A program made the translations under genes and the position numbers. The notes under the pieces were generated by a model that saw nothing but the letters and a program-made list of their open reading frames with translations, was not told where the DNA came from and did no database searches. Below are positions 3,637 to 24,334 of a stretch of 26,143 nucleotides of DNA, one piece after another (the stretch's first letter is position 1; each line of letters starts with the position of its first letter). The DNA comes from Cyanobacteria bacterium P01_D01_bin.73 (GTDB lineage: Bacteria > Cyanobacteriota > Cyanobacteriia > CACIAM-69d), in assembly GCA_039198915.1 (NCBI GenBank), contig JBCCTE010000001.1, forward strand, positions 1 through 26,143, in the 5' to 3' direction.

Positions 3637-3648
3637 GGTTTGCACATC

Positions 3649-3900: not shown

Positions 3901-3903
3901 GCC

Positions 3904-4125
3904 ATGGAGAAGGCTAAACGGGCCACGATTCAGTTGGGCGATCGCGAATTGGAAGTTTTCCAGTTGCCCGACGGCTCGTATCGACTTAGCCAGTCCCAGG
4001 TTGCTGAGGCAGTAGAAAAGCCGGAAGCGAATTTCCCAGACTTTTTAGGCAAAAAATGACTGGAATCCTTACCTGGACTGGATCGTTCTAGTCATACTTT
4101 TTTGAAAATTGAGTACGAGGAATAG
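3904..4125 (+). pseudogene. Truncated antirepressor/P63C-like N-terminal fragment with in-frame TGA
   Basis: MEKAKRATIQLGDRELEVFQLPDGSYRLSQSQVAEAVEK..., TGA at 4057-4059, then the frame continues LESLPGLD...EYEE* into the dinD start. Confidence 0.55.
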
Positions 4126-4972: not shown

Positions 4973-5772
4973 TACGGTCCCATCACGTTTACAACCAGTG
5001 GGATTTTCTCCTGAATTATGAACTGGTTATCGCTAATGGACCACCAACCAAAACAGCAATGTTTTTTTCATGATTTCTATTATCTTTCTCGTGTTTTATC
5101 AACCTTTTTAAAACACAGAGTATTTATCCTAGGTCAGGTCACTTCCCAGAGAAAAAACGTTCTTTAAATAATGGGTACTCAACCCAATTAAAGTACGTTT
5201 AAGCAATTAAAGATGACTTTAGATCCAGATAGGATCTATTTGCGTAAATACAATTTTGATCGGCTAATATAAAACCAAGAAAAAATTGGTCTCGAGAACT
5301 AGAAAGCGAACCCTGGTTGTCCCCAAGGTCCGCTTTCACAAAAACTGAAGTTTCGCCGCTTCAAAGTTATGGAATTATTCTACTCGCAAAAAATCATTTC
5401 TCCCACCCTTGCCTGGCAGCTATGCGCAGCAGCTCAGGGGTGGGTTTGTTCGTTTATTGAGGGTCAAACCATGACCGCTTCATTGAAAAACTGCCTAAAA
5501 ACGGTGAAGACCCCTAGGGCTGGATAGCTCTAAGGGCCTTGCAAAACCTTTCCCTGTCATCGCGATCAAAGTTTGCCGACTCAAGACGCGATGCGGGGGC
5601 TCTAGCCCAACTCCAAACCGCTGCTACCAACAGCAACCTGGACCAGGCTTTTATCCAACCGAATTGGAGACCGATTGAATTCAGCAAAAACGACATCAGA
5701 AATGGCGCTTTTGCATGAACGGCATAAGAAATGCCGCAAACCACCTGTACACACGTGTAAACAGAGGTCTAA

Positions 5773-7608
5773 GTGAATCATAGCGCATGTACACACACAC
5801 CTGGTACCAGTGAACCAGCAGCACCGCTTCAGGCGATCCAAAGCACCCTAATTCCCCTATTTCCCCAAAGATCGCCCCAGCGCCGGATCCAGCTCCGGGA
5901 CTACCAAACGCAGATGCTTCGGGAAATTTATCGAGCAATTCGTGGGAACCAGTCCCGAGTGTTGGCGATCGCCGTCATGGGCGCGGGCAAGACGGTCCTA
6001 GCTAGCAAAATTATGTCCGACGCCGTGAGCAAGGGACGGCGGGCGCTATTCCTAGTCAGCCTCAACTGCCTGCTGGACCAGGCGGCGGGCACCCTAGAAA
6101 AATTTGGGATCCGTTGCTCAGTCTTGCAGGGCGATCGCGATTTCGACACCGGCGCACCGGCGATCGTCGCCAGTCTCCAAACAATCGCCGCGCGGCAACG
6201 GCGGGGGCAGTCTCTGGGCCAGATCCTAGGGCGCAATTTTGGGGTGGTATTCCTCGATGAGGCTCACATCACCGCATGGGATAAAACCTACACCGCCATT
6301 TCAGACTGGCTTCCTAACACCGCCATCATCGGGCTCACTGCAACTCCATGGCGGCTCAGTAAAAAGCAATGGCTAGGGCAGCAATTTGAGAGTGCTGTTA
6401 TTGGACCCCAGCCCCTAGACATCATCAAAATGGGCGGCGCGGTCCCGGCTCGCATTTTTCGCTTGGACGGGGCAATCAAGGAAACCGAGCTAAAGGTGCG
6501 CCAGGGTGAGTACGCCGACAGCTCCATTGCTCGACAAGCAACAACGCCAGAAAGCCTCGCAATCGTATTGAACGGGTACCAAGAACATTGCAGCGATCGC
6601 CCGGCGCTAATGGTGGGGGCCACCGTCTCTCAGGCTCAAGCAACAGCCGACCATTTCAATCAGCACGGGATAAAAGCTGAGGTAATTACCGGCAAAACCA
6701 GCCACCGCGATCGCCAGGCAATCATCGCTCGCTTAGCCAGCGGTGCCACCCAAATCATTTGCTCAGTGGGTTGCCTGACCGCCGGTTTCGATTGCCCGCC
6801 AGTGTCAGCAATCTTATTTGTACGGAAAACAAAAAGCCGAGCATTATTCCATCAGGTGTGCGGTCGCGGCTCCCGTCCCCACCCTGGCAAAACCGACTAC
6901 CTAATCCTCGACTTTGGCAATAACCAAACCCATGGCAACCCCATGGCAGCTCAGGATTATTCCATCGCCGAACCGGAGCAGCATGAGCTGGTGACGGTGG
7001 ATAAAGCCTGTCCCGCTTGCTTAGAAGTGGTGAGCATCTTCGTTCAGATTTGCCCCAACTGTGGGCATGAATTTAGCGCCAATACTGCTGCGGATGATGG
7101 TACCGAGGAATTAATCCAAGGCACTCTTTCCGAGCGATTCACGAAACAACAGCTCGCGCAACGACAATGGCTACGTGATGTGCGACGGCGGGCATTTGCG
7201 CAGGACGAAAACCCTAGCCGGTGTATTCAGCAATTTATCGATACCCACGGCTTTACACCACCAAAAGACTGGACCCACGGCGCAGCTCTAGGGCGCACCA
7301 ACGCCAGCGTTAGCCGCCGCTTGCAATACGTTGAATATCTAGAACGCCATTGCACTGAAGCAAAAGACGTTGAGGGCTGGCTTGCCTACCACTGCCAGCT
7401 TGAATTTGGCTGCGATTTTGAGCGACTGATGGAGCTACCTGGGTGGTGGGACGTTTTGCGAATACCCCCTGACTCGGGACCGGAAGAGGTCAGGGAAGCC
7501 TATCGCCGGGCATCACTAATGGCTTCCACCCAGGCAGATTTCCACCAGTTGAACACGGCGATCGCGTCGGCTAAGGCAGATTTGCAGGGGGTACCTGCAA
7601 ATGGCTAA
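5773..7608 (+). CDS. DEAH-box SF2 helicase (RadD/YejH-like) with Zn finger and C-terminal J-domain-like region
   Basis: LRDYQ, MGAGKT, DEAH, TATP, TAGFDCP, QVCGRGSR, CPAC/CPNC. C-terminal WWDVLRIPPDSGPEEVREAYRR. Start codon uncertain. Confidence 0.9.
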   Translation: MNHSACTHTPGTSEPAAPLQAIQSTLIPLFPQRSPQRRIQLRDYQTQMLREIYRAIRGNQSRVLAIAVMGAGKTVLASKIMSDAVSKGRRALFLVSLNCLLDQAAGTLEKFGIRCSVLQGDRDFDTGAPAIVASLQTIAARQRRGQSLGQILGRNFGVVFLDEAHITAWDKTYTAISDWLPNTAIIGLTATPWRLSKKQWLGQQFESAVIGPQPLDIIKMGGAVPARIFRLDGAIKETELKVRQGEYADSSIARQATTPESLAIVLNGYQEHCSDRPALMVGATVSQAQATADHFNQHGIKAEVITGKTSHRDRQAIIARLASGATQIICSVGCLTAGFDCPPVSAILFVRKTKSRALFHQVCGRGSRPHPGKTDYLILDFGNNQTHGNPMAAQDYSIAEPEQHELVTVDKACPACLEVVSIFVQICPNCGHEFSANTAADDGTEELIQGTLSERFTKQQLAQRQWLRDVRRRAFAQDENPSRCIQQFIDTHGFTPPKDWTHGAALGRTNASVSRRLQYVEYLERHCTEAKDVEGWLAYHCQLEFGCDFERLMELPGWWDVLRIPPDSGPEEVREAYRRASLMASTQADFHQLNTAIASAKADLQGVPANG

Positions 7609-10600
7609 TCAATTCCACTACTACCGCCAAGGCGACTGCCCAATCTGTGGAGGTGCTGGGCATAAATCCAATAAAGTTTGCCGGTCCACCACCACCGATG
7701 ACGGACGCATTAAGGTCCATTGCTGGGGTGGTGGCGACGCTCTTAAAGGCTGGGGATATGTGGGCGATGATACTCACGGCATGGCCCAGTACATCGAAGG
7801 CTGGGGCGATCGCCGGGATATGGACCGGGATGCCAGAGAGCGCAAAGCAACGGCGGCGCGGGCACAGGCGGAAAAGGAGCGGCTGGGGCGATCGCTAACC
7901 ATTGAACGGGATGCCACTTACCGGAAATGGCAGGACAATCAACGTCTGAACCAGCGGGACCGGGACGAATTAACCCGGCGTGGTCTCTTGCCCAATGAAA
8001 TTCAATTAGCGCAGGAGCTGGGCTGGTTACGCCGCTGGGAGAAAGGGTCACAGCTATTTGGTCCTGCCAATATTCCCGGCGTAAATCATTGGGGGCTTGG
8101 TGGGCAATCGGGACTGGCGATCGCAGCGCCTAATTCTGACGGGCTAATCGCAGGCTTCCAAGTCAAGCCGGATAGCCAGGGCGATGGACCCAAATATCGC
8201 TGGCTAGCTGGCTGCGCCCTGCGTAATAATGAGCAGCCCATTCCGGTATTTCAGCATCCAGATCGCCGTGGGGATGTGGAAATCTGGATTACTGAGGGTT
8301 TTCTAAAGGCACTCGTTACAGCGTTTCTGGCATGGCGGCTAGGGCTCACCCATGTCGTAGTGGTGGGCTGTGGCGGTTCCAACTGGGCAAGCGCACCGGC
8401 GCAATGGGAACGCACCCTGCAGCGCCTCAATCCCACCGCAATCTACCTGTTACCCGACGCCGGCGCGGCCCAAAACGAAAACATCCTGGGGCAAGCGGAT
8501 AGGCTGCGATCGCTCCTACGCGGGCTGGGACATACTCTCAAATTTAAGTGGTGGGGGCAATTCGATAAATCGGGCAAGGGCAACCTAGACCCTGACGAAG
8601 TACCCACCCAAACCATCATCGATGCACCGGCGCTACCCGCTATCCCCGCCGGCGCGATTCAGCTTTGGAGCGAAACCCCCCAGCGACAGGCGTTACTGGT
8701 ACCCGGCGTAGGAATGCCATTGCTGTATGAGCCGGGCGATCGCCAGCGGGTGTGGGAGGGCATGGAAGATCGGGCGATCGCCAGTGGGCAGTCGTTAGTG
8801 GTGCTAGATACTAGCGAAGCCGGAAGCGGCAAATCGCGGGACGCCGGAATATTTCTGCACAACGCCCCCAATGGCACCCAGCGAGTGTTTGCGTCTCAGG
8901 AATATCGCAACCCATCGGATCCCACGTTAGATGCCCTGCCAGAGCTAGAAGCGAAGCACCTGGGCTTGGTCGGCAACGACATCGATGGGCGGTATATCCG
9001 TCGCACCCCTAAAGCTGGTGAAGAGCCCAACATTGAGCCGTCATGCGCCAAAGCACCCTATTTCCACAAGGCTCACTCCATGGGAGTGCAGGCGATCGCC
9101 GGTGCGGATTGCCATGCCTGTCGTACTTGCCCCATGGCAGATATCACCTATAGGGAAGGGGAGGTAGTAGCTCTAACCTGCCAACACCTAAATCGTAAGC
9201 GGGCTACCAAAGATACCCCCGCCTACCGGTGCCATCCCAGCACCATAGCCAAGCCCAGCGAGCGCTACGATTCCCAGACCGTAATCATTGATGAAGCCAC
9301 ACCGGCGCTATCAGCGGTGCAATCCCAAAGCTTTAGCCCTAATGATCTAGCCCAAGATTTTCAGGCACTCAAGGTAACGGCACCGGAGCCGGCTGCCATC
9401 ATTGAACCCCTTGTAGATGCCGATATTTTGGCGCTCCACAAGCTTTCTGCCAGCAAAGACCCAGAGGATTACTACGGGCTATCAAGTTACGCCCTGATGG
9501 AATCTCAAGCTCAGGCTGTTAAAGCTGTGGAGAGCCAACTAGAGGCATCTCCACACTTCGACTACATCTCCGCTGCCACACCGTGGGAATGGCTTGCCAA
9601 ACGCCTGGATAAAGCAACCCGCACACTACCTGATCATCACCTGGGCTCCACCCTGGAAGAGCACCTATGGGCACTGGATAACCTGGCCCGAGCACGATTT
9701 TTTGGAGAGCGGTTACGAGCAACAACCGGGCAACACAGTCGAGCCACCATGCCCCGCACCAACATTGCCAATGGTGATCGCCCGGCAACTCTACAGCTAA
9801 GCAATGCCAACGCCCGCACTAAGGCGCAATTCAAAACTGCTAACCGGCTGTCGATACTGTTAGATGCAACCGGCTCTCCCGCGCACCTACGACGCATCAC
9901 GGGACAACCGGTGTTCTGGATTCAGCAGCGGCGATCGCAGTTTCCCAACCTCACCATCAAACTCATCACCGGCACCGACAAGCTGAAGGTAAATCGTGAG
10001 CAATCAACGCGCGACCGCGCCCGATTATTGGCCCAGCGAGTTGCGGATGCTCATCAAGGACAATCCATCGGGCTTATTGATTACCAGCGCTACCGGGACG
10101 ACTATGACGGACTGGGCTTCAAATTCCTGTCCCGATTTGTCGAGTCCCGTGGCACCAACCGGGCTAAAGATTTGGATGCGATCGCCCTAATGGGTGTCGG
10201 CGTTTCTAACCTGGGGCAGCTGGCCATTCAGTATGAGTTACTGCACCGGTGCACTATTGCTGACCTTGCCCATGACCGTCGATTCCTCGCGTGGGTACGA
10301 AGGCGATCGCTGGACCTGACCGTTCAGGAAATTTCCAGACTTCGAGCCCAATGGTCATCTACGTCCCAGACGGTGTACGTCGCCGGGGCGAGCAAGACGG
10401 CGATCGCCCGACTGCAAAAGGAGTTTCCAGGGGCAACCGTCGAAGTGGTGGACGTAATGCGAATCAGCCCCCAATCGGCAACAGAGAAAGCCCAGCGTAC
10501 TGCCAACGCGGTTATCGATAGTGCAATAACTACCGCTAAAGACACCGGAGTGATGCCTTCCCAACAAGCCTTAGCGAAGGCGACCGGACGCTCGCTGTCC

Positions 10601-10966
10601 ACGGTACAACGAGCAGTTAAGTCTGTTTGCGGACAAGGCTACCGAGCATTTTCCAAAGTGGTCAAACGGCTATTAGAAACCATTAATAGTGGTTTGACCA
10701 CTTTCCAAAACAGTCTTGAATTGGAGACTTTGCGTCAGGAATTAGACGCTATTGGCTGTGGGCATTTCTTTGGCAGCGCCAACGCTTTAGAGACCATGGC
10801 CACATTGGAGGAGCATTTTAAGAATTACGGGCAAGCTCAGTTTCTACGGGCAATCGAAGGCGTTTCGACTTATGGGCGTGCCGGTATAGATCGGGCGATC
10901 GCAGCTGCGGCTGTAGACCAGGCGATCACCGCTCCAAAACCGGTGCTCATATTGCCACCGGAATAA
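7601..10966 (+). CDS. Plasmid replication primase-helicase (ZnF-Toprim/DUF3854-like-helicase-HTH; cyanobacterial CyRepA-like)
   Basis: N-terminal CPIC...C...HC, Toprim IWITEGFLKA and YLLPDAG, P-loop EAGSGKS, VIIDEA, LLDATG, C-terminal HTH SQQALAKATGRSLSTVQRAVK. Overlaps the helicase gene by 8 bp. Confidence 0.75.
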   Translation: MANQFHYYRQGDCPICGGAGHKSNKVCRSTTTDDGRIKVHCWGGGDALKGWGYVGDDTHGMAQYIEGWGDRRDMDRDARERKATAARAQAEKERLGRSLTIERDATYRKWQDNQRLNQRDRDELTRRGLLPNEIQLAQELGWLRRWEKGSQLFGPANIPGVNHWGLGGQSGLAIAAPNSDGLIAGFQVKPDSQGDGPKYRWLAGCALRNNEQPIPVFQHPDRRGDVEIWITEGFLKALVTAFLAWRLGLTHVVVVGCGGSNWASAPAQWERTLQRLNPTAIYLLPDAGAAQNENILGQADRLRSLLRGLGHTLKFKWWGQFDKSGKGNLDPDEVPTQTIIDAPALPAIPAGAIQLWSETPQRQALLVPGVGMPLLYEPGDRQRVWEGMEDRAIASGQSLVVLDTSEAGSGKSRDAGIFLHNAPNGTQRVFASQEYRNPSDPTLDALPELEAKHLGLVGNDIDGRYIRRTPKAGEEPNIEPSCAKAPYFHKAHSMGVQAIAGADCHACRTCPMADITYREGEVVALTCQHLNRKRATKDTPAYRCHPSTIAKPSERYDSQTVIIDEATPALSAVQSQSFSPNDLAQDFQALKVTAPEPAAIIEPLVDADILALHKLSASKDPEDYYGLSSYALMESQAQAVKAVESQLEASPHFDYISAATPWEWLAKRLDKATRTLPDHHLGSTLEEHLWALDNLARARFFGERLRATTGQHSRATMPRTNIANGDRPATLQLSNANARTKAQFKTANRLSILLDATGSPAHLRRITGQPVFWIQQRRSQFPNLTIKLITGTDKLKVNREQSTRDRARLLAQRVADAHQGQSIGLIDYQRYRDDYDGLGFKFLSRFVESRGTNRAKDLDAIALMGVGVSNLGQLAIQYELLHRCTIADLAHDRRFLAWVRRRSLDLTVQEISRLRAQWSSTSQTVYVAGASKTAIARLQKEFPGATVEVVDVMRISPQSATEKAQRTANAVIDSAITTAKDTGVMPSQQALAKATGRSLSTVQRAVKSVCGQGYRAFSKVVKRLLETINSGLTTFQNSLELETLRQELDAIGCGHFFGSANALETMATLEEHFKNYGQAQFLRAIEGVSTYGRAGIDRAIAAAAVDQAITAPKPVLILPPE

Positions 10967-11056
10967 TCATTGCCACCACTTCAAAATCGCTGCCCCCTGT
11001 GTTAGGGGTAGCCGCTGCATGGACAATAGGGTGAATCACACTTAGTTCAGGTGTAG

Positions 11057-11419
11057 GTGATGAAGACCAAAGGCAAAAATGGCATTGATCCTTTCCCCCG
11101 CTACGTTATTGAGGAGGCTGTGAGGGCATATGGACGGCTAGAGAGTGCTAGGGAGATCGTCTCAAGCCCGCCCCCAGAAAATGCTGCTAGACCAGTCTCC
11201 ATTGAGCTTGAGCCCGGACTCATTCATGCGGGATTAAGGCAGGCTTTTGAGCAAATGTGCAAGGGCGAGGAAATAACTCTGACGGTCAACGTGACGCTGC
11301 CACTTTCCGAGGAAGATCTATTGAGCTGCATTGAGGAGTGCTTGGGAGAGCAGGAAAGCTCTTCACTCGTTACTTCTTTACCGGCCTTTCAGCTTGGCTC
11401 TCTGATCCAAGACAGTTAA
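11057..11419 (+). CDS. Hypothetical acidic protein
   Basis: 120-aa ORF downstream of rep; no recognisable motif. Confidence 0.55.
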   Translation: MMKTKGKNGIDPFPRYVIEEAVRAYGRLESAREIVSSPPPENAARPVSIELEPGLIHAGLRQAFEQMCKGEEITLTVNVTLPLSEEDLLSCIEECLGEQESSSLVTSLPAFQLGSLIQDS

Positions 11420-11501
11420 ATACGATTTGCATTGTGACGATTGCTCTCGCGCGGGGGACATTTTGAGGGTGTGTGTCTTGAGGATGCGCTTTATACATCT
11501 C

Positions 11502-12459
11502 TGGATTTCAGCGACCCCATCCTCGTCTGGTCAATGGACAGCTTAGACTTTCAATCCCTAGGAAGGATTCCGATGGATTTCAGCCAACGCTTTTAAGTTA
11601 AGGCGACCTTCTTTTTCAACTTTCAATCCCTAGGAGGGATTCCGATGGATTTCAGCAGATCCAAACAACCGAAAAAACGGGGCAAATCTCGCCTTTCAAT
11701 CCCTAGGAAGGATTCCGATGGATTTCAGCTGTAACCGAACCACTGAAAAGTCAGCGCATTGAACGCTTTCAATCCCTAGGAAGGATTCCGATGGATTTCA
11801 GCCATACGCTGCGTCGTTAAACGCCCGAGGGAAGGACTTTCAATCCCTAGGAAGAATTCCGATGGATTTCAGCGATAGTTCGCCTAGAGGGCACATGGTC
11901 CCAAACTCACTTTCAATCCCTAGGAAGAATTCCGATGGATTTCAGCGTCCCCTTAAGCCCATCACCCCTACAGAGGTATTTCTTTCAATCCCTAGGAAGG
12001 ATTCCGATGGATTTCAGCCCATCAGGTCCAGGTACCTGATCAGGATTCAAGTCCTTTCAATCCCTAGGAAGGATTCCGATGGATTTCAGCTTTGCACCAG
12101 GGCGGCGCTAATCCACCAAGATTTATCGCTTTCAATCCCTAGGAAGGATTCCGATGGATTTCAGCGGCTTGGCGTTTGGCGGCTAATTGATCCTCTTGTT
12201 CACTTTCAATCCCTAGGAAGGATTCCGATGGATTTCAGCTTTCATTCAGCTTCTCGGGGGTGAGGTTTAACAGTCTTTCAATCCCTAGGAAGGATTCCGA
12301 TGGATTTCAGCCAAGTTGAGGATCACTCTCCCGCAATTTAGGAGAACTTTCAATCCCTAGGAAGGATTCCGATGGATTTCAGCGCAGCTGGATGCTCCTA
12401 ATGGTTGGGTTTATCTCGAATCCTTTCAATCCCTAGGAAGGATTCCGATGGATTTCAGC
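11502..12459 (-). CRISPR. CRISPR array: 13 full 37-bp repeats plus a truncated terminal repeat, 13 spacers of 34-39 bp
   Basis: Minus-strand repeat GCTGAAATCCATCGGAATCCTTCCTAGGGATTGAAAG. Plus-strand starts at 11548, 11620, 11693, 11766, 11837, 11910, 11982, 12054, 12129, 12203, 12275, 12347, 12423; 11-nt remnant at 11502-11512. Orientation inferred from the 3' hairpin, the ATTGAAAG end and the degenerate left terminus. Confidence 0.98.
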
Positions 12460-12480
12460 TGTGGTGTCCTATAGCCCAAG

Positions 12481-14373
12481 CTATATCGGTGATTGAGCCT
12501 CCTTTTGCGCGGATTGATTATTAGCTGATATTCCAAAGGTGTCGGAAGTGGGATCGTGCGATCGCTCAGCCTGTGGCGATCGCAGATGTGTTGGGCTTTC
12601 CGCGACTCGCGCGGACCCTTTAGGCTGCACTTTTCGCCGTCTGTCCCGCGTAGCGGGGATTTCGGGATGATTCACCAAGTTGGACGAGAGAATATCCCCC
12701 GACTCGCGCACCAGAGTACGAACCTGACTATCACCGCTCTCAGGCGAACTACATAGGCCGTCAAAACGGCTAGGGGCATCGCTCACCGACACGAGCGCAC
12801 CCTTCTTAGACATCACTGGCGATAAGCTCAGTGGCTTTAAGCGTCCCGGTAGAATCCGGGATTTAGAATCAAGCGCATCGCTCAAGATGTTGGCGGCACC
12901 AACCCCATCACGATCACCTGTCCATCCGCAGCTACGGCAGACGTAGAGTCGTCCCCGTGGTTTGCGTCTAGCCCCGCACTTGGGACAAGTTTGAGAGGTA
13001 TAGCGCTCGCTTTGTAGCGATAGCGTTGCGCCATGTTCCTCTAATTTCTGCTGTAAAAGATCGCGTTGACGTCCAACCTCCCATAGGGCATTTCGCTTAG
13101 ATTGAAGCTTGCGAGTTTCCCCCTTTTTACGTCCCTTAGGGATGTTGAACACATCTCCAAAGTAAAGCGTTCCAACATCCTGGGCGATGCACCAATTAGC
13201 AATTCGCTTAGTCACACAGTGGTTTGCATAACGTAGCTTTCGCCGGGCGATCGCGTTATGGCGCCCAAGGGCATGCTTCAGTTTCCAATCCCTATTTGAG
13301 TAACGACGACGATACCGAAATGTCTCAGGAGAATTGCCCGCTGCAACGTGGCGCTCTAACTGTTCTCTGCGACGGTGGGCTGCAATGCGTTGGTGGGCGT
13401 ATTTCGTACCCGCCCCTGAAGACTTCGCCTCCATAGACGTCATTGTTTCCCGTTCTTCTGAGGAAAGGTAATAGCGCACTTGTCCACGGAACACCCGCGC
13501 CCTTTTTCGGTTAATAGCCTTTTGTGATCGTTCCCTCTGGCGCTTAACAGCAAGGATGTCATGCCCCGACACCGAACGAATACGCCCTTTGCTATCAGCT
13601 ACAACCATCGCTCGAAGCTGACCAGGATCGACCGCTGCCACATTAGTCAGCGCTTTCACCTCATCTGCATCTGGCTTTGGTAAGGAATAGGAAAGGTGAA
13701 TCCATGCATCTCCCCCGTCATCAAAAGAGATGGATGCTTGCAAGACTTCCATTCCTACCATCTTGGGAGGAACTGATACGGTGACAAAACCACCAATCTG
13801 AGTTTTAGACCCCAGCTGCAGGTGAGTACCGACCCACCGACACTCTGCCTTCAGGACATCCCACTTACGCCCTGATGGCTTACGAACAGAGCGGAACCGC
13901 ATCGGCAACTGAGCCCGGTAATTTCCCTTCTTGCGATGAGTCCAGAAGCCTTTGATTTGACCACGCATCCCCCGGCAGAGTGCGGATACTTGCTTAGAGC
14001 TAATGCCATACTTGCACCCGGCATCGAATGGAGCTGGTTGCCGGTCCGTCAAAGCTTTCAGGTACGGCCATGGCTCTAGCATGGCGTCCTTCCGGTACTC
14101 AGCTACCGGTACCCCAGCTATTACTTCACCTGTGTCCGCAAAAATACGGCGGGCTCGCTCAGCTCCTTTTCCTTTGATAAAGCAATGTCGAACTGCATCC
14201 CCATTAGCAATTGGGAATATTGGCTGTGAATGCAACCTCATTGCATTAACCAGCTCGTTGTAACACCATCGTTGAGCAGCCATTAGCGCCGCAACCTGTG
14301 CCCGCTTCTTTCTCGTCAAGCGCACTGGCGTGACGACAGTTCGCGACAGTTTAGTGGTTTTATCTTTCGCCAT
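12481..14373 (-). CDS. tnpB: CRISPR-adjacent TnpB/Cas12f-like RNA-guided RuvC protein
   Basis: N-terminal helix AQRWCYNELV, RuvC-I AAVD249PG, RuvC-II LYFG406D, QSE456RYTSQTC, Zn finger C463/466/479/482, RuvC-III DRD489GVGAANI. Stop codon 21 bp from the first repeat. Confidence 0.9.
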   Translation of the reverse strand: MAKDKTTKLSRTVVTPVRLTRKKRAQVAALMAAQRWCYNELVNAMRLHSQPIFPIANGDAVRHCFIKGKGAERARRIFADTGEVIAGVPVAEYRKDAMLEPWPYLKALTDRQPAPFDAGCKYGISSKQVSALCRGMRGQIKGFWTHRKKGNYRAQLPMRFRSVRKPSGRKWDVLKAECRWVGTHLQLGSKTQIGGFVTVSVPPKMVGMEVLQASISFDDGGDAWIHLSYSLPKPDADEVKALTNVAAVDPGQLRAMVVADSKGRIRSVSGHDILAVKRQRERSQKAINRKRARVFRGQVRYYLSSEERETMTSMEAKSSGAGTKYAHQRIAAHRRREQLERHVAAGNSPETFRYRRRYSNRDWKLKHALGRHNAIARRKLRYANHCVTKRIANWCIAQDVGTLYFGDVFNIPKGRKKGETRKLQSKRNALWEVGRQRDLLQQKLEEHGATLSLQSERYTSQTCPKCGARRKPRGRLYVCRSCGWTGDRDGVGAANILSDALDSKSRILPGRLKPLSLSPVMSKKGALVSVSDAPSRFDGLCSSPESGDSQVRTLVRESGDILSSNLVNHPEIPATRDRRRKVQPKGSARVAESPTHLRSPQAERSHDPTSDTFGISANNQSAQKEAQSPI

Positions 14374-14473
14374 CTAGATAAGTGGCTCAGCCGGTCATAT
14401 CTAATGAAAATTGATACTGATTTCAGAATAGCAATGTTCCAGGAGAGAGTGGTCGGGTCTGCCTTAACTAGCT

Positions 14474-14875
14474 TTATTTGTTGGCTTCGGTGTCTAGCCC
14501 TTCAGCCGCAATGCGCAGAGATTGCTGGTTGGGGCATCGGTCAATATCGCTTTCGTCAATGGCTGCCAAGCCGCGCAACAGAAGCTCTGCATTCAAGTGA
14601 ATTTCTAGCTCGGAATCAGTAGGGATGAAAATTTCGACCTGATTATCACTGCCTAAAACCACAACTTGATCGCCGAAGCTTACCAGTTTTTCTAGCTCAG
14701 CTTTAGCGCCCGGCTTAGGGGAAACGCCACACAGCTTTACTGGCTGGTTTTGCCCGTTGATTTGGACCACCAAAGTTTCACCATCGATGATCTCAGAGAG
14801 AAAGCCGCTCTGGCTGCTGTAGTTCTGATCGCAACTCAGTAGCAGTAGAGCCAGCAAGGTTATCCAGGATTTCAT
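14474..14875 (-). CDS. Thermonuclease (SNase)-like lipoprotein, catalytic motifs degenerate
   Basis: Lipobox LLLSC; EIIDGETLVV...VKLCGV...LNAELLLRGLA. Canonical DGDT, GIDAPE and YGR motifs are altered or missing. Confidence 0.7.
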   Translation of the reverse strand: MKSWITLLALLLLSCDQNYSSQSGFLSEIIDGETLVVQINGQNQPVKLCGVSPKPGAKAELEKLVSFGDQVVVLGSDNQVEIFIPTDSELEIHLNAELLLRGLAAIDESDIDRCPNQQSLRIAAEGLDTEANK

Positions 14876-15135
14876 CGCTGTGCGATCGCCCCCGCCACTG
14901 TTAACAACGTTTTTTCGAGTTGCTTCATTCTGTTCTCTAAATCGGCAACTTTGCTTTGGAGGCTTGCTCCGGTTTCTCGTTTTAGCTCGCGCAAAACAAT
15001 TTTTTTTAGCAAACCAGCGCGGGTTGTCCCTTGTTCATTCGCTAGCTTGTCAAATTCATCAATGGTTGTCTGGTCAAGACGGCAACCGACAGGGATGGAA
15101 CTCATTTTGAAAACGGCGTTAACGTGCGCCGCCAC
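14872..15135 (-). CDS. CopG/RHH-like regulator with C-terminal coiled coil
   Basis: IPVGCRLD-helix-TTRAGLLKKIV, then heptad LQSKVADLENRMKQLEK. ATGA overlap with the next gene. Confidence 0.7.
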   Translation of the reverse strand: MAAHVNAVFKMSSIPVGCRLDQTTIDEFDKLANEQGTTRAGLLKKIVLRELKRETGASLQSKVADLENRMKQLEKTLLTVAGAIAQR

Positions 15136-15223
15136 TAAATTTCATTCTCAATAATTGGCACCTGTTTTCAACAGCCGCGATTAATAAATTGCCGCCTGCC
15201 TACAATCCTTGTATTTACTGCTA

Positions 15224-15251
15224 ATGTTAGATAATACTAATTATCTCATAT
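15224..15251. other. dif/Xer-like 28-bp recombination core site
   Basis: ATGTTAGATAA-TACTAA-TTATCTCATAT: 11-6-11 architecture, arms 9/11 inverted, with inner ATAA/TTAT as in Xer sites. Ends 7 bp before the recombinase ATG. Confidence 0.65.
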
Positions 15252-15258
15252 TAAAATT

Positions 15259-16080
15259 ATGGGACCGATTTACCACGATTGGATCAGTCGAGCGCGATCG
15301 CCTCATACGGCTCGGATCTACCAACAGAGTTTGGATAAGTGGAAATCGGTGTTTGGGAGGTTGCCGTCTGGAGAAACGAGGGCAGCTAATTTAGATCGGT
15401 TTCTTAGATCGATGGCTCATTTGTCGCCAGCAACGAAAGCAACCCATATACGGAATATCAAAACGTTGTTGCGCTGGGGGCATGATGAGGGGCATTGGCG
15501 TTGTCCCCCGTCGGTGTTGAAATATCGATTGCGATCGCCGGGGACTGCTGCTGCGTCGCGATTCTTAAGTCCTGACGATGCCCGAGCCATCATTACGGCG
15601 GCTGGGAATGAGCGGGACCGGTTGATGTTGCAGTGCTTGTTTTCTTTAGGACTTAGGAATGCTGAGTTGCGGGGGCTGGAATGGTCCGACCTATACTATG
15701 ACCGCCTTACGGTGCGGGGTAAGGGGGAGAAGGTGCGATCTCTGATGGTGCCGGAAGAGCTGCTGAAGCAGTTGAATGTGTGGCGAGCTGCTAGCAGTGG
15801 TAAGGGGCTGATTTTCCGTAGTCATCGTAGTGGATCAAGACTGGAAGGGCAGCATGTGTGGCGGGTGGTGAAGGAGGCGGCGGCGATCGCCAGGGAGGCA
15901 GATCCGAGTATTCCCGATGCGAGTCCCCACTGGTTCCGTCATGCGTTGGCGTCAGCGGCTTTGCAGGGAGGCGCGACGGTTAAGCAGGTACAGGTGTATT
16001 TAGGGCATTCGTCGGGGCAAACGACGTTGGATACCTATGCCCATGTAATTGGGGATGTGGCGATTGCGGATTTTGTTTAG
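15259..16080 (+). CDS. Tyrosine recombinase (XerC/D-like; likely multimer resolvase)
   Basis: GLRNAEL, RGKGEK, HWFRH, LGHSS, TYAH: the catalytic R-K-H-R-H-Y set is intact. Confidence 0.93.
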   Translation: MGPIYHDWISRARSPHTARIYQQSLDKWKSVFGRLPSGETRAANLDRFLRSMAHLSPATKATHIRNIKTLLRWGHDEGHWRCPPSVLKYRLRSPGTAAASRFLSPDDARAIITAAGNERDRLMLQCLFSLGLRNAELRGLEWSDLYYDRLTVRGKGEKVRSLMVPEELLKQLNVWRAASSGKGLIFRSHRSGSRLEGQHVWRVVKEAAAIAREADPSIPDASPHWFRHALASAALQGGATVKQVQVYLGHSSGQTTLDTYAHVIGDVAIADFV

Positions 16081-16244
16081 GTAGTGTAGAAGTAAATTTC
16101 ATTACAGATATTCCCTAACGAATAACAGTATGGGGATAAAACATAAATAATTGACTTCGAATGTAGAAAGTTCTTGAGTTGAACAAGACAGCAGTTCTCG
16201 GAAATTAATCTATCGATTTTTGACATGTCAAATAGGCTTAAAAA

Positions 16245-16412
16245 ATGTCCATAGAAAACAAAAATAAAAAATCTTCTTCCCTATCCGTAGAATCTATCTC
16301 TAGTGATGATTCCGAATTAGAAGAAAAAGAAAATTTGTCAGGAATTTTTTCTCGAAGAAGCATTAAAGAAAAGCTTAAAAGATATACTCAGTATGACAAT
16401 TTACAAGGATAA
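16245..16412 (+). CDS. 55-aa peptide missed by the ORF track (possible precursor/leader peptide)
   Basis: My translation: MSIENKNKKSSSLSVESISSDDSELEEKENLSGIFSRRSIKEKLKRYTQYDNLQG*. Ends 29 bp before the peptidase-like gene. Confidence 0.5.
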   Translation: MSIENKNKKSSSLSVESISSDDSELEEKENLSGIFSRRSIKEKLKRYTQYDNLQG

Positions 16413-16441
16413 GAATTTGATAAAGAACTATCTTCTAGAAA

Positions 16442-17515
16442 ATGATTTTTTTGTCTGATCTGATTTCAATTTTTGGCGATGAATTTGGGGACATTTTATT
16501 TCTTGTTGCTTCACACGAAATTCGAAAATTTATTCATGTCTCTGAAGCCTTAAGAGATATTGTTGAAGTGACTGAAATAGAGTGGATAGATTTTCAGTCT
16601 CGTAGAAAAATAGCCGATCAAATTTTATCGTTGAAACAAGATGGGCGCTATTGTTCAGTGCTAATTATTTCTGAAGATGATTATAGTCATTTCGATGAGA
16701 TCGAAATACTTAACGCCAAAATTGCAGCTATTTCCTTCTTTTCAACCTCCTTTAGTTTGCAAGCACTTTCGAGGACGGCTGAAATTATAAAGAACACTAA
16801 TTACGCTCTTCAGTTAAAAACAGAATTAGCTCTGGTGGAAAGGTTAGACGAGGCAGATGTGACTATTTTTCGAGATGAAGATTATGGTACGGAGTCTGTC
16901 TTCCAGCATCATGAAAGTGATAATTGGTTTTCTCTGCATGGACCTCTTTCCTTTGGGCAACAAGCAGTTCTCCCAACAGGAGAGTTATCTGTATTAACAG
17001 ATGAATCTGGTCAATTCTCCGATCAGTCTAAATTTCGTTTAGATGGAAAATTACTTGTTAAAGGGGTACCTATTATTCATCGAAGTGACTTTAATGTCTC
17101 ACTGAAAGAAACCATAGAGACTTACGATAAATTATCTTCTATGAAGACAGAATCTATTATTTTTAATGTTAAGGATGGAGAGATTGTAAGTATTGCGGAT
17201 GCGAGTATGCGTAACACCAGTCTTTTGCAAGAGTTTGAAGAATTGCTTTCATCAGATAGTAGATATTGTAAAATCCATGAAATTGGATTTGGCAGTAATC
17301 CCAACTGTGCTGATCTATTTGATGAAAACTACTTCCCTAATGAAAGATTTCCCGGCGTCCACTTCGGTTTAGGGTTGGGGAGCTTTACGAAATATCATAT
17401 AGATTTAGTCTGTGAAAATACCAAGGTTTTTATTGGTTCAGGCAACTCGTATGAATTAAGAGAAGTTTATGATACTGCTGCTCTCCAGTTTCGGGAGAAT
17501 TCATCTTTGTACTGA
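16442..17515 (+). CDS. M29 aminopeptidase-like metalloprotein (CgnB/CgnE-like)
   Basis: LPTGEL, HEIGFGSNP, PNERFPGVHFGLG and HIDLV parallel the M29 metal-ligand motifs. AT-rich, no HIP1. Confidence 0.65.
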   Translation: MIFLSDLISIFGDEFGDILFLVASHEIRKFIHVSEALRDIVEVTEIEWIDFQSRRKIADQILSLKQDGRYCSVLIISEDDYSHFDEIEILNAKIAAISFFSTSFSLQALSRTAEIIKNTNYALQLKTELALVERLDEADVTIFRDEDYGTESVFQHHESDNWFSLHGPLSFGQQAVLPTGELSVLTDESGQFSDQSKFRLDGKLLVKGVPIIHRSDFNVSLKETIETYDKLSSMKTESIIFNVKDGEIVSIADASMRNTSLLQEFEELLSSDSRYCKIHEIGFGSNPNCADLFDENYFPNERFPGVHFGLGLGSFTKYHIDLVCENTKVFIGSGNSYELREVYDTAALQFRENSSLY

Positions 17516-18441
17516 CCGAATTGAGGCCAATTTCTTGAAGAAAGTATTTCTATTCGTCTGACTTCTTTTACTTTGACATTACTTAATGGCTCTAGTCGCA
17601 TACTTCGAAGGTGAAATTTAAGAGCACAAAGTATAGTATAATTTTCGGCTTCAACTAAGTATTGAATCGGATCCAGCTCACTTTTAGATAGAGATTCCCT
17701 TATCCTGACAACATCAATCCTCTTCCATTTTGAAGGGGCTAGGATAAAAGCTATATCATTCGAGTCATCGAAATTGAATCCATTTACATTGTGCGTGTTG
17801 TGCCGAACTAGAAAGTTATTTAGAGATGCTCTTTTTATCTCATCGTTTTCTCCTGCATCAAATTCTCTCTCTCTGTAGTAAAGTCTACTGGCAAGAATAG
17901 TTGAATCTTTTGCTTTTCTCTCTAGTTCATTAGAAAATTTTCTAAACTCAATATTAGGAATTGAACCATAGCTAGATAACTTGGAAGTGGCAATATAAGC
18001 ATATCCATACCCTAAATCTTTTACGATTTCACTCATAAGTAGATATGCAGGAGTCAAGTTATCAATCTGCATAATTTGAGTTTCATCTGTGATGTGATTG
18101 ACAATTGCCATGGCACTGTCAGTTATATATTTATAGGTATAGTCTCCAAAAACTTTGCTGGTCGTTTGAAGATATTGAGGCTTTTTACTAACAGAGTGTC
18201 TATTTATTTTTGAGATTACATGCCCCATATCGTTGTCTATTTGCTTTTTCATGCTACTTACTTGCAAATCGACACGTGTAATCTTTATCCCAACACCTGA
18301 CAAGAATAATCCTGTTGAAATAGCTGATGCAACTTTTGAAGCCGAACTTTCTTTAATATACGGCTCTAGTACTGAAGTAATTACTGTAAGGGCAATCCCA
18401 CTAAATATTAAAAATGCATCTATCTTGTTTAGAAAATTCAT
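17467..18441 (-). CDS. Hypothetical protein with two N-terminal TM helices and a soluble C-terminal domain
   Basis: 324 aa; FLIFSGIALTVITSVL and AISTGLFLSGVGI. AT-rich, convergent with and overlapping the peptidase-like gene by 49 bp. Confidence 0.75.
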   Translation of the reverse strand: MNFLNKIDAFLIFSGIALTVITSVLEPYIKESSASKVASAISTGLFLSGVGIKITRVDLQVSSMKKQIDNDMGHVISKINRHSVSKKPQYLQTTSKVFGDYTYKYITDSAMAIVNHITDETQIMQIDNLTPAYLLMSEIVKDLGYGYAYIATSKLSSYGSIPNIEFRKFSNELERKAKDSTILASRLYYREREFDAGENDEIKRASLNNFLVRHNTHNVNGFNFDDSNDIAFILAPSKWKRIDVVRIRESLSKSELDPIQYLVEAENYTILCALKFHLRSMRLEPLSNVKVKEVRRIEILSSRNWPQFGQYKDEFSRNWRAAVS

Positions 18442-18657
18442 AAGCGTAGAAAACTTTTGACGATCAAAAAGTCTTGTTTTTGAGTAGATGAATGGAAATT
18501 AAACTTCAATTGAAATTGAATTAATCTCAAAATTTTTTAGAAAATAATTTTGAGGTAAAAACTTAACTGTTTTTTGTTCTCCAGTTATATCGACATGTTT
18601 TTTTGAGGCGAAATCTCATGAGAATCTCGCTAATTGGCCATGCTCTTGAATTCTGTT

Positions 18658-18891
18658 TCATAGACTAAAAGAGCATGAACTTTCTCTTGATTTCTGCTGA
18701 AAGAGAGCTTCATTAACAGCTTTACGCACAAACTCTTGCCGATCACTTCCCATTGCTCGCAGCGCCTCATCTGCTTCAACTGAGAACCTGACAGCGATGG
18801 GCTTCTTCGCTAATTCCAGCGTGTCGTGCTTAGGCTTCTTGAACTGATCCCACTCCGCTGGTTTTTTGGGGCTTGGATTGCCTTTAGCCAT
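18658..18891 (-). CDS. Small RHH-like DNA-binding protein
   Basis: MAKGNP...KPIAVRFSVEADEALRAMGSDRQEFVRKAVNEAL. Likely start at 18891. Confidence 0.65.
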   Translation of the reverse strand: MAKGNPSPKKPAEWDQFKKPKHDTLELAKKPIAVRFSVEADEALRAMGSDRQEFVRKAVNEALFQQKSRESSCSFSL

Positions 18892-18894
18892 TGT

Positions 18895-18980
18895 TTTTCC
18901 CGGTATACACTCTCTTGCCAGTATACCGGGAAAATCTACCTGTGCAGGCATTTGACATTATGCCGGTATACTGGCATAAT
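18895..18980 (+). promoter_or_regulatory. Sigma70-like promoter with palindromic operators
   Basis: TTGACA (18952-57), 17 bp, CATAAT (18975-80). A 24-bp near-perfect palindrome spans 18957-18980, and a 14-bp perfect inverted repeat lies at 18895-18908/18921-18934. All share a GTATAC core. Confidence 0.75.
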
Positions 18981-18996
18981 AGAATCAACGCAAACA

Positions 18997-19036
18997 ACAA
19001 CCCCTGCGATAGCCTAGGAACTCGCGCAGGGGTTGT
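18997..19036 (+). other. 5'-UTR hairpin
   Basis: acaacccctgcg / cgcaggggttgt, perfect 12-bp arms with a 16-nt loop, between the promoter and the ATG at 19063. Confidence 0.6.
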
Positions 19037-19062
19037 GTAAAACCTTCAATGAGGTCATCCCA

Positions 19063-19677
19063 ATGATCGCACACTTACCTCAACCCGCCACCCAAATCAC
19101 CAACATTGAGTCCCGTGGCAGCGCTGCCTATCCCCAGGTCACAAAGAAAGATTTCATGGCTGGCGTGGTGCTGTACACCGCCGGGCGGGCGTTCCCTTCC
19201 AAGTTCGTGGAGGGGCAGATGGACTCCAATATCGTCGTCACCACCGCCCACGGGGAAATTAAGGTCTGGGGCGAAATTAATCTGCTGAAGACCCTGCACA
19301 AAGGGCGTACCGTACTGTTGGAGAAAAGCCCCCGCGCTAAAAACTGGAAGCTGGCGGTGGATTCACAAACGGGACAGGTTATCGAAGGACACCAATCCCA
19401 GCAGTCCACCGCACCGGGGCAACAGGCTCAGGTGCCGGTAGCAGCTCAGTATCAGCGTCCCGCCACCAGTAACGCGATCGCCAGTGAAATCAGCGCGATG
19501 GCTGCCCTGTATACCGACTGCTATAAAGCTGCCCAGCGGAATTTGGGGGCGATCGCGCCGGCGGAAACTATCCAGGCAGCGGCGTCTTCGGTATTCATTC
19601 AGCTAAATAAAAATCACGACAGCGATACGTTGCTGGGTGCGGCGGCTGAAAGTGCTAAGGCGGATCTGGGATTCTAA
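19063..19677 (+). CDS. Hypothetical protein (beta-rich N-terminus, Q-rich linker, helical C-terminus; possibly ssDNA-binding)
   Basis: Good promoter and a strong ORF. The function guess rests only on domain layout. Confidence 0.7.
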   Translation: MIAHLPQPATQITNIESRGSAAYPQVTKKDFMAGVVLYTAGRAFPSKFVEGQMDSNIVVTTAHGEIKVWGEINLLKTLHKGRTVLLEKSPRAKNWKLAVDSQTGQVIEGHQSQQSTAPGQQAQVPVAAQYQRPATSNAIASEISAMAALYTDCYKAAQRNLGAIAPAETIQAAASSVFIQLNKNHDSDTLLGAAAESAKADLGF

Positions 19678-19802
19678 GAACATCGAAATGGGGCTCTATT
19701 TCGGAGCTCCGCTGCGCGTCAACATGTCGAAAACCCTGGTTTTTTGAGGTGAAAAAATCGATACCTGCAACCAAGCCAGGGAATATTCTGAGGGAGATAA
19801 AT

Positions 19803-20081
19803 ATGGCTTTAATTTCAAAAGAAACGGTGCTGGAGCACGCATCACCTGGCGCTATTGTAGAGGGGGCGATTGAGATTCCTGTTGATGGTGTTGTGTATTC
19901 CGTGTTCAGGCTTCGTTCTACGGGTGGTACAACGACGTGGCACGCATGGAAGGGTGAACAGAAGATTGATTGCTCTGGTTGTTTGAATGTGTTGGATGTG
20001 GCGTCCGTGCTGTTTCCTGATTTCAAAGATAGAGCGGCGCGGAACTTGATGTCCCTGGATTGGATGTCGCGGAATAATTAG
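19803..20081 (+). CDS. Hypothetical protein
   Basis: ORF from ATG 19803 (MALISKE), followed by a terminator. Confidence 0.55.
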   Translation: MALISKETVLEHASPGAIVEGAIEIPVDGVVYSVFRLRSTGGTTTWHAWKGEQKIDCSGCLNVLDVASVLFPDFKDRAARNLMSLDWMSRNN

Positions 20082-20110
20082 GGCGCAGCGATTAATTGAA
20101 TCATTTCGAC

Positions 20111-20138
20111 GGGGGCCTCTACTAGGTCCCCATTTTTA
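20111..20138 (+). terminator. Rho-independent terminator
   Basis: gggggcct-ctact-aggtcccc 8-bp stem followed by attttta. Confidence 0.6.
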
Positions 20139-20542
20139 TGCCTGGGCGATCGCTCCGGCGGAAACTATTCAGGCGGCTTCTTAAAAGTTGACGCTTGCAG
20201 TCTTGCTCCAAAATTTAGTGCTTGAGGTTAAGTTGCCAAGGGATGAACATTCATCAGGAAGATAAAGTTTACGAAAAGTTATTTAACCCGTTTCTGTTTG
20301 GATTGGAGATAACTGCTATTGGGATGGGCATGTCCATTGATGATTGCGTCCTGACCTTATAGCAAGTTTAGAAATTATTGAATGAGTTCGATAGTCTCTT
20401 ACATCTTGACGAAAGAGGCGATGAATATCTATTTTGGGGAAGCGGAAATCGTTAGCGGACGGGAAAGGGAATGATAAGCTTATGAATTTTCCCGATTTTC
20501 AGCATTTTCGCCTACAATTCAATTGACTTTGTACAAGCAAAA

Positions 20543-20646
20543 GCGGAGCTACCAACTGCAGCTTGACAATACAAAAAGCTCAGACCTAGTATTTTAGGGT
20601 CTGAGTTTTTTGTACGTTTAGGCATATTCGTAGTTGGTAGCTCCGC
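20543..20646. ncRNA. Nested long hairpin / bidirectional terminator upstream of a small hydrophobic ORF
   Basis: Outer 15-bp perfect arms 20543-57/20632-46. Inner 17-bp arms 20570-86/20598-614 (one G-U), flanked by A and T runs. Confidence 0.5.
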
Positions 20647-20702
20647 ATGGTCTTCTCTACACACAACTAAGACGCTTGTACAACTGAAATAGGGTTAGCC
20701 TT

Positions 20703-20783
20703 ATGGTCTTTGAAGAATTAATGGTGCTTGCTTTCACTTGCTCGATTTTGGCGAAAGCTATTGAGAAATTGTGGAAAGCGTGA
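20703..20783 (+). CDS. 26-aa hydrophobic peptide, candidate type I toxin
   Basis: My translation: MVFEELMVLAFTCSILAKAIEKLWKA*; hydrophobic core with a basic, Trp-containing tail. Confidence 0.45.
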   Translation: MVFEELMVLAFTCSILAKAIEKLWKA

Positions 20784-20884
20784 GTTAACTAGCTGCGCTA
20801 AAGCAGTTTAAATTTCATACAACTGAATAGCTTTTATACGAAAAATGGTTGTTTGACCTGCCGCCGAGAGTGGAAAAGGAGATA

Positions 20885-20917
20885 AGCCCTGGCAGATGCT
20901 AGGGCTCTGTCTTTTTT
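20885..20917 (+). terminator. Rho-independent terminator
   Basis: agccctggc-agat-gctagggct stem followed by ctgtctttttt. Confidence 0.55.
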
Positions 20918-21459
20918 ATGAATGTAGATGCGCACAAGAAAGGGGTAATTGAAAGGTGACTGCGTCGTCACGGTTTCTTAGTCCTGAGCATGCCCGATTG
21001 ATTATCGATTCCACTACCAGAGACAGGGACGAGCTAATGCTGTAATGCTGAGCTACGGGGGATGGGACGAGGGAACCTATGCCATGGGCGCTATCTCTTT
21101 CTTATGGCACTTCGTTGCAGCTACCCTTCAATTACCCCTATGAGGAACATTAAAATGACTCGCCCCGCTCAAAATCCCCGTGATGTGCCAATCCTGTTTG
21201 TTGTTCTCAAGAAAATGGCTTAGTTTTTTTGATTCCGGCAATTTTCACGTCAAAAACAGCCGAAACCTTTGGTAGGCAAAGGATCTGATTCCGGCAAAAT
21301 TCGTCGCCTCCTCCTAAAAGTCTGACAAGAACAGCCGTTACGGGGTAAGCATCCAGGGCGATTTCAGTCGAAAAAGTTTGCGAAAAGCGCCTGGCTTTTT
21401 CTTTCAATCGCGCTCCGACCAGAAGATTGCCATCTTGGCAACTCAACGAGGTTTTGAAA

Positions 21460-21723
21460 ATGGCTAGTAATCTTTTCGATCAGCTCTACGCCAATATTGA
21501 TTGTGAAAAGGGAATTTATTCTTGGACGGTGGCTGAAACGGCCATCGAACAGAATTGCCTCCCCTGGTATGATCCACGCTTCATCAAGGGCTACCACGAG
21601 CTACTATTTGTCTGCTTCATCAGTACTCATTCAACTCAACACTGGGGCGCTAGTCTTTTCTTGTGGCACTTCGCTGCAGCTACCCAGCAGGCGCAGCTGA
21701 TTGCAAGATCTAGATTCGATTAG
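21460..21723 (+). CDS. Hypothetical protein or gene remnant
   Basis: 87-aa ORF from ATG 21460. The upstream frame is interrupted by stops. Confidence 0.3.
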   Translation: MASNLFDQLYANIDCEKGIYSWTVAETAIEQNCLPWYDPRFIKGYHELLFVCFISTHSTQHWGASLFLWHFAAATQQAQLIARSRFD

Positions 21724-22225
21724 CAGATTGCTGAAATACTAATTGCCCATCTCGATAGGCCCACACTGACAAAATATTATTTTGGACAGTAGCTACATAT
21801 GTACTGCCGCTGTTAAACCATGAGAAGTAACGCTTCCCATTTTGATCAGATTCAGAAGCGCCAGTTAACTGAGTTGTACCTCGCCCATTAGTAGCTGTGT
21901 ACACGAGTTTTTGATCACGACCAAGACTCAGGTTGACTTGCCAATTGCCACGACGGTAAGTACCAACTACTGAACTTGCACTAGACTGCAAAGCTGGGCG
22001 AGAAGCAGGACGAGTGCGGGAACTACCTCCCGTTCCTGTGGAAGGAGTTCGGCGAAAAGATCCACCACTAGAAGACCCGCTGCCGCTGTTATGGCAGTGA
22101 TAATCCCCTGTGCGAGTGTTGTTGTGACAACCTGAAGCGTTGGTTCTGCCAGAGTGAGCATCTGCAACACTAGATAAAGCGCTCAATATCGCAATACTTA
22201 TCCCAATGTGCAAAACCCACTTCAT
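21710..22225 (-). CDS. Secreted YHYH-domain protein
   Basis: Signal peptide, AHSGRTNASGCHNNTRTGDYHCH, G/S-rich linker, beta-rich C-terminal domain. Confidence 0.85.
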   Translation of the reverse strand: MKWVLHIGISIAILSALSSVADAHSGRTNASGCHNNTRTGDYHCHNSGSGSSSGGSFRRTPSTGTGGSSRTRPASRPALQSSASSVVGTYRRGNWQVNLSLGRDQKLVYTATNGRGTTQLTGASESDQNGKRYFSWFNSGSTYVATVQNNILSVWAYRDGQLVFQQSANRI

Positions 22226-22429
22226 AGTTCATCTCCTAGATCTAGAAACCTATGTAAGCTCTCTTTTATCAAGGTATAGATCACAGTTGTGTATTCAATC
22301 TAGCTATGGAAGGAGAATTACAGCTCCTCGTAGTTTTTAGGTTGAAAGAGCATGCACACCTCAATTCTCCAATCTCTTGGCTCTTAACTGAATGCACGCA
22401 TCAGTATCTTCAGCCGTCTCAACCCTCCA

Positions 22430-24331: not shown

Positions 24332-24334
24332 TGG

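Follow-up and report, generated by a model that had tools for sequence, protein, structure and literature searches.

The window, i.e., the whole stretch of 26,143 nucleotides analyzed here, contains a gene for a TnpB-like protein that is followed, 21 nt past its stop codon, by a CRISPR array in the same orientation. Both lie on an element that is probably a circular plasmid and that encodes ParA, an actin-like protein, a XerC-like recombinase, a helicase and RusA. The main features of the locus are:

806..26143, no strand assigned: probable circular plasmid-like element of ~25.2 kb, with a 122-nt repeat at 806-927 and 26022-26143
12481..14373, minus strand: TnpB-derived type V effector of 630 aa, with WED/REC, a rearranged RuvC, a CCCC zinc finger and a disordered tail of ~130 aa
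11548..12459, minus strand: CRISPR array of 13 repeats of 37 nt and 12 spacers of 34-39 nt, with a type I-D-like repeat
11502..11547, minus strand: 13th spacer (35 nt) and truncated terminal repeat, at the trailer end, distal to the gene

Elsewhere on the element, the helicase gene is followed by a gene for a 1121-aa protein with a weak HTH match (5773-10966, plus strand), likely forming a replication module. A pair of convergent ORFs of apparently low GC content (16442-18441; 357 and 324 aa), without a Pfam or NCBIfam match, is possible cargo.

The top fold match of the effector is ISDra2 TnpB (Z 14.7), and the residues of the RuvC site and the zinc finger were located as follows:

13627..13629, minus strand: RuvC-I catalytic Asp, D249
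13153..13158, minus strand: RuvC-II G406-D407, with Gly in place of the canonical Glu (RIIr-5 type)
13006..13008, minus strand: alternative catalytic Glu, E456, six residues ahead of the zinc finger
12928..12987, minus strand: zinc finger CxxC...CxxC (C463-C482)
12907..12909, minus strand: RuvC-III catalytic Asp, D489

A Gly at RuvC-II combined with a Glu six residues before the CxxC, here G406, E456 and C463, characterizes the RIIr-5 rearrangement, which is regarded as active (PMC10691335; PMC10711439). On these grounds the D249-E456-D489 site of the window effector, with its residues intact in the rearranged form, is probably active. The triad reads D/alternative E/D, and not HDD as in Cas12m2. 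Pro-Fanzor status (DPG plus the alternative Glu) was considered and dropped as uninformative, the DPG being patchy across the clade described below.

The preliminary description of this DNA had proposed an insertion of ~60 aa between RuvC-I and RuvC-II, and this is borne out by our analysis. The segment (window 13303-13488, minus strand) corresponds to residues 296-357 of the 630-aa ORF, between RKRARVF (289-295) and YSNRDWKL (358-365). In the alignment, D249 to D407 spans 159 aa in the window protein, vs. mostly 97-98 aa in ~90 short TnpB relatives (nearly all 94-105, maximum 123). The insertion, of about 61 aa, replaces the K-K/G-S-R (KKGS-type) turn that occupies this site in the short relatives, at the tip of the bridge-helix hairpin (RuvC alpha1/alpha2), as indicated by both the alignment and a structural model. 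In an AlphaFold2 model of residues 240-412 alone (mean pLDDT 94.5), the first long helix (RuvC helix 1) is extended to residue 302, and two additional helices are predicted at 305-317 and 321-344, with the second long helix continuing from residue 360. The insertion is basic (14 K/R vs. 7 D/E) and consists of two parts:

13357..13488, minus strand: conserved core of the insertion, aa 296-339, extending RuvC helix 1 and adding two helices, with invariant R300, L303, Y325 and R334
13303..13356, minus strand: variable part of the insertion, aa 340-357, which several clade members lack and others have in longer form

All of the ~20 long homologues that we identified carry the insertion, in lengths of 45-91 aa, and none of 91 short relatives does. 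As these homologues share its invariant residues, and G297, Y302, G320 and K/R324 are near-invariant, the insertion reflects neither a frameshift nor chance. The conserved residues are mostly Arg/Lys and a hydrophobic core, a composition typical of nucleic-acid binding. Alignment and modeling together show the insertion to be a real, conserved module, predicted to fold as helices, that is grafted on the tip of the RuvC alpha1/alpha2 hairpin.

Searches returned about 20 long homologues, followed by a sharp drop to TnpBs of ~400 aa. In a quick tree, built from an alignment with the insertion and the tails cut out, the long homologues are monophyletic (SH-aLRT 100) on a stem of 1.26 substitutions, and the window effector is 22-26% identical to its nearest short relatives. 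The only named host of the clade is Floridaenema evergladense, and two members are found on viral contigs. No further full-length members were found in 60 relatives, 401 genomes of the phylum, and annotated plasmid and phage sets; the clade is rare. The insertion thus has a single origin, in the common ancestor of a small type V clade, derived from IS605/RIIr-5 TnpB, on cyanobacterial plasmids and phages.

At least two repeats follow the effector gene at 11 of the 15 clade loci for which DNA is available (11 of 13 informative loci), namely at the window, L001, L002, L003/4, L005, L006, L007, L009, L027, L032 and L034. The contigs of L035 and L069 break within the first repeat, and L008 and L033 have a single repeat only. 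Both L008 and L033 branch from within the array-bearing members and still have the tracr-like RNA described below. The clade is array-linked throughout, and the earlier claim that effector and array are not neighbors by chance therefore stands. The clade thereby shows one of the published hallmarks of a type V effector, namely an array that lies downstream of the gene for a TnpB-like RuvC protein, in the same orientation, and is conserved in two or more clusters (PMC10691335). A linked transposase is lacking as well: no Y1 TnpA was found in 14 clade loci or in the window, and no recombinase among the called neighbors of the clade effector genes, several contigs being short. The tracr-like RNA and single repeat of L008 (1685-2030) and L033 (5008-5045) may reflect array loss or a reversion to a single fixed guide. 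L008 was considered as an IS-borne counter-example, having a tail hairpin that resembles an IS right end, and was rejected: homologous sequence occurs in array-bearing members, the tracr-like RNA and one repeat are kept, and there is no TnpA.

The preliminary description held that the same insertion in IS-borne homologues would speak against it. The short relatives P0012 and L037 adjoin Y1 TnpA and do not carry the insertion. L037-L039 end in IS605-type hairpins, L037-L040 are without an array, and all lack the insertion. The proposal thus withstands this check. The marks of an IS605 element, a Y1 TnpA and/or a right-end hairpin closing the omega-RNA, are present at L037 and P0012, whereas the window has the array after the gene.

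A second insertion, specific to the clade, was identified in the REC lobe:

14074..14235, minus strand: REC-lobe insertion of ~55 aa, about aa 47-100, boundaries approximate, within the N39-G123 span

This span measures 85 aa in the window protein and 81-161 aa in the clade, vs. a median of 33 aa in short TnpBs; the insertion itself reaches ~130 aa in the Floridaenema protein. In the window model it has low confidence and a mixed alpha/beta character, with no long coiled coil modelled. It is the positional counterpart of the Cas12m REC2 and the Cas12n REC expansion (PMC10442227; PMC12216341), and lies positionally closer to the Cas12m REC2 than does the bridge-helix insertion. Apart from the two insertions, every segment is as long in the clade as in the short relatives.

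At the protein level, the effector ORF tail of ~130 aa shows little conservation. The underlying DNA can be aligned throughout the clade, even with L034 and L008, in which it is non-coding, and contains two predicted features:

12550..12709, minus strand: predicted tracr-like RNA in the ORF tail, with four to five covarying stems and an uncertain 5' boundary
12550..12556, minus strand: 7-nt anti-repeat that pairs with positions -11 to -5 of the repeat and shows compensatory changes within the clade

RNAalifold on seven members predicted several stems, with double-sided changes in 22 of 48 pairs, and unprompted paired the 7-nt segment (12550-12556) with the 3' part of the repeat. In the aligned register, cognate anti-repeat:repeat pairs outperform shuffled ones (p below 1/20,000); as these position-aligned tests were set up after the pairing had been seen, and on related sequences, we rely more on the compensatory pairs. 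An unrestricted duplex-energy test of the anti-repeat was not significant (p 0.20). Scans of single locus sequences found nothing, there was no Rfam match, and the window region folded alone gave a modest signal (z -1.5). No similarity was detectable between the tracr-like RNA of the clade and the 3' ends of its IS605 relatives. Covariation thus shows a split guide, in which a predicted tracr-like RNA in the gene tail pairs with the repeat. The anti-repeat covaries with very different repeats across the clade. Repeat copies also differ within one array (L002:4578-4885, L027:3353-3676 and L034:2395-2790), the ends and the part that pairs with the anti-repeat being better kept. The split guide, the array directly after the stop codon and the REC-lobe insertion were gained on the same branch as the bridge-helix insertion, and this stem of 1.26 substitutions is compatible with more than one order of events.

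Cyanobacterial array repeats agree with that of the window at 26-29 of its 37 positions, and one such array adjoins cas1d-cas2; neither cas1 nor a Y1 tnpA was found in the assembly, which is 72% complete. With such a repeat and no cas1, the spacer length is more simply explained by acquisition in the host: the 34-39-nt spacers probably reflect the host type I-D acquisition machinery rather than reading by the effector. The length of the insertion (45-91 aa) does not track that of the spacers (~33-43 nt in intact arrays of the clade). No credible protospacer was found for the window spacers (best 24/35), and hence no PAM, and the flanks of four spacer matches in relatives disagree. At L007, two spacers match adjacent stretches of one small gene on the same element (34/36 and 31/35; L007:3826-3894), and the mismatches lie mostly at the 5' end. 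One Floridaenema spacer matches a phage-like region (33/34) and another matches (34/42) a gene beside an ATPase that is 44% identical to the P-loop ATPase encoded in the window (24415-25791, minus strand). The spacer matches of the relatives would fit competition between mobile elements.

We then compared the modelled region with known structures. A Foldseek search with the insertion segment gave Fanzor1 as the top, weak match (E 0.009); these searches found no strong match to the module itself, which does not imply a new fold. The segment that matches the 173-aa model does not exceed 112-133 aa in Cas12a, e, f, k and p, whereas it measures 145 aa in LaTranC, 151 aa in SpuFz, and 231-253 aa in Cas12j and Cas12o1. 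The largest, though weak, overlap of the model is with LaTranC, at 129 aligned residues (rmsd 5.0, Z 6.9), vs. 100 residues for ISDra2. The module did not superimpose on the insertion of CasPhi (Cas12j), with 108 residues aligned over the 231-aa span (Z 6.2).

In the literature, the STP domain of Cas12j3 lies between BH-I and BH-II and restricts the length of the hybrid to 17 nt (PMC8298400), and the Cas12j STP domain contacts the distal duplex (PMC8298400; PMC12141684). Kinked helices of the non-CRISPR nuclease Fanzor1 embrace the duplex from the same site (PMC10711439), and Cas12b has its helical-II there (PMC12204704). The REC2 of Cas12m2 is inserted in REC1 instead (PMC10442227). The general statement that Cas12 effectors gain a REC2 at this position is therefore not supported, although an insertion here that contacts the distal duplex has precedent in Cas12j and Fanzor1. 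The true counterparts of the insertion are the Cas12j STP, the Cas12b helical-II, the enlarged bridge helix of TranC and the Fanzor1 helices. As these are elaborated at this site and Cas12a, e, f, k and p are not, we consider it a recurrent place for elaboration, and not a general mark of Cas12 or CRISPR.

We favor a reading, to which we give an even chance, in which the insertion is a clamp for the PAM-distal duplex. By analogy, the basic extension would reach along the guide:target duplex past the ~12 bp read by TnpB, and cap or clamp it at around 17-20 bp, in the manner of the Cas12j STP or the Fanzor1 kinked helices. This might improve specificity or couple R-loop completion to cutting. 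The targets of the system are probably rival phages and plasmids, and its spacers would be provided in trans by the Cas1-Cas2 of the host. Consistent with this reading are the presence of the insertion throughout the clade, its invariant Arg and aromatic residues, its confident model (pLDDT 94), the duplex-contacting insertions at the same position in Cas12j3 and Fanzor1, the weak overlap with LaTranC, the arrays at 11 of 13 loci, the anti-repeat helix, and the relatives' spacers that match phage-like and plasmid-like DNA. Against it stand the failure to superimpose on the CasPhi insertion, the single origin, the lack of a window protospacer, and the omega-RNA contacts around the turn in ISDra2 TnpB, where Q227, R231, R232 and R238 (numbering from an alignment) flank the turn and bind stems 2 and 3a (PMC10097598). 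In addition, the REC-lobe insertion of the clade could do the distal-duplex job instead. These last two points lead to the main alternative, doubtful but not negligible, in which the module clamps a remodelled scaffold (tracr stems and the 7-bp repeat:anti-repeat), offsetting the split of the omega-RNA, and the REC-lobe insertion reads the distal duplex. The clade's own tracr-like RNA, dissimilar to the 3' ends of its IS605 relatives, agrees with this, but the extensions of this tip in Cas12j and Fanzor1 go to the duplex, and Cas12n and Cas12f have split guides without an insertion here.

It is unlikely that the module is a surface for protein interaction (with a second copy in a dimer, or with a host factor), or that it marks the lineage without bearing on guide length, having been gained in an ancestor without CRISPR prior to the capture of an array. 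Such an order of events is compatible with the long stem, L008 and L033 retain the insertion with one repeat, and Fanzor1 shows that an extension is possible without CRISPR; the nested position of these two loci, their retained tracr-like RNA, the absence of a TnpA-linked member (14 clade loci and the window), and the Arg/Lys and hydrophobic core argue otherwise. Least probable by far is the strict form of the earlier proposal, in which the insertion would be homologous to the REC2 of Cas12a or Cas12m and would have been selected for reading the 34-39-nt spacers in full. It accounts for the perfect co-occurrence with the array-bearing clade, and some authors do call these double helices 'REC2' (PMC10711439). 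However, the Cas12m REC2 lies within REC1, Cas12a has no insertion here, and the compact effectors Cas12m2, Cas-lambda2 and CasPhi read 17-18 bp, vs. 12 bp for TnpB. With insertion and spacer length uncoupled, an I-D-like repeat and an extension in non-CRISPR Fanzor1, adaptation to spacers of this length is not upheld; the clade effector is not a reader of 34-39-nt spacers. Insertion and array fall on one long branch and count as a single event, from which neither a statistical link to CRISPR nor an adaptation of one to the other follows.

RIIr-5 IS605 TnpB shares with the clade the RuvC-II Gly, the alternative Glu before the zinc finger and the segment lengths outside the two insertions, whereas the clade has these insertions (~55-60 aa each), an array, a tracr-like RNA and no Y1 TnpA. 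Cas12j (CasPhi), also borne on mobile elements and without adaptation genes, carries a domain on two long bridge helices, inserted after RuvC-I and before RuvC-II (PMC8298400). Its STP domain comprises about 115 aa with a beta-sheet, vs. ~60 all-helical aa in the clade. Cas12j is also not known to require a tracr, and has the canonical Glu. The TranC proteins, intermediates from TnpB to Cas12, resemble the clade in TnpB-like size, split guide and an enlarged bridge helix (named as such for TranC clade 3; LaTranC 9jfo/9jfq), but identity is 14% and the profile E-value 0.014. As described, TranC clades have no tracr-bearing unstructured tail, and the repeats of clade 3 are 32 or 36 nt (bioRxiv 2026.03.27.714800). 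Cas12n (V-N, V-U4) likewise has a tracrRNA in a disordered C-terminal coding tail (predicted by covariation in our clade), an array directly downstream and a REC expansion. However, RdCas12n has the canonical span of 100 aa (D287-E386) without a bridge-helix insertion, vs. G406-D407 at 158 aa in the window protein, and the sequence match is weak (9j09, E 1.2e-4; PADLOC Cas12u4, weak and partial). Cas12m (V-M) is of similar size with a REC-lobe insertion after the first REC helix, but its REC2 is a coiled coil away from the bridge-helix site and its catalytic site is HDD. Fanzor1 shares the alternative-Glu RuvC and a kinked extension of the same double helices (PMC10711439), but is eukaryotic, transposon-borne, without CRISPR and of independent origin.

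By the features tested, the clade is not Cas12m or Cas12n, and probably not Cas12j. It is probably an unnamed TnpB-to-Cas12 lineage, as judged against the systems compared above, and may coincide with one of the published V-U6 to V-U45 or TranC clades. We tentatively raise the possibility, somewhat short of even, that it represents an undescribed independent type V subtype on cyanobacterial plasmids and phages, with an active rearranged-RuvC effector (~500-aa core), two separately gained guide-extending modules, an intragenic tracrRNA co-evolving with very divergent repeats, and a C-terminal motif like those that bind the clamp. If so, it could serve as a compact editor and for testing the way in which TnpB turned into Cas12. 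Cas12 has evolved from TnpB on about 50 occasions (PMC10691335), and one question is which protein changes accompanied this switch. Just two discrete insertions distinguish the CRISPR clade from its IS-borne relatives in segment length, which allows a direct test of the bridge-helix vs. the REC module, and the clade offers compact nuclease candidates with a predicted tracr. Several other Cas12 lineages independently came to grip a longer guide-target duplex, and the additional piece in this clade probably does likewise; the clade is one more case of a known evolutionary pattern, and not a new principle.

The C-terminal motif, of QL-x-LW type, ends all 12 other full-tail proteins of the clade that were checked, and we take it to resemble a beta-clamp-binding motif. 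The window copy is without it, with stop codons at the Q and W positions (window 12460-12483, minus strand). Small genes for HTH or ribbon-helix-type proteins are often located just upstream of the effector gene (L009:1010-1330, L007:4256-4960, L069:400-684 and window 14872-15135).
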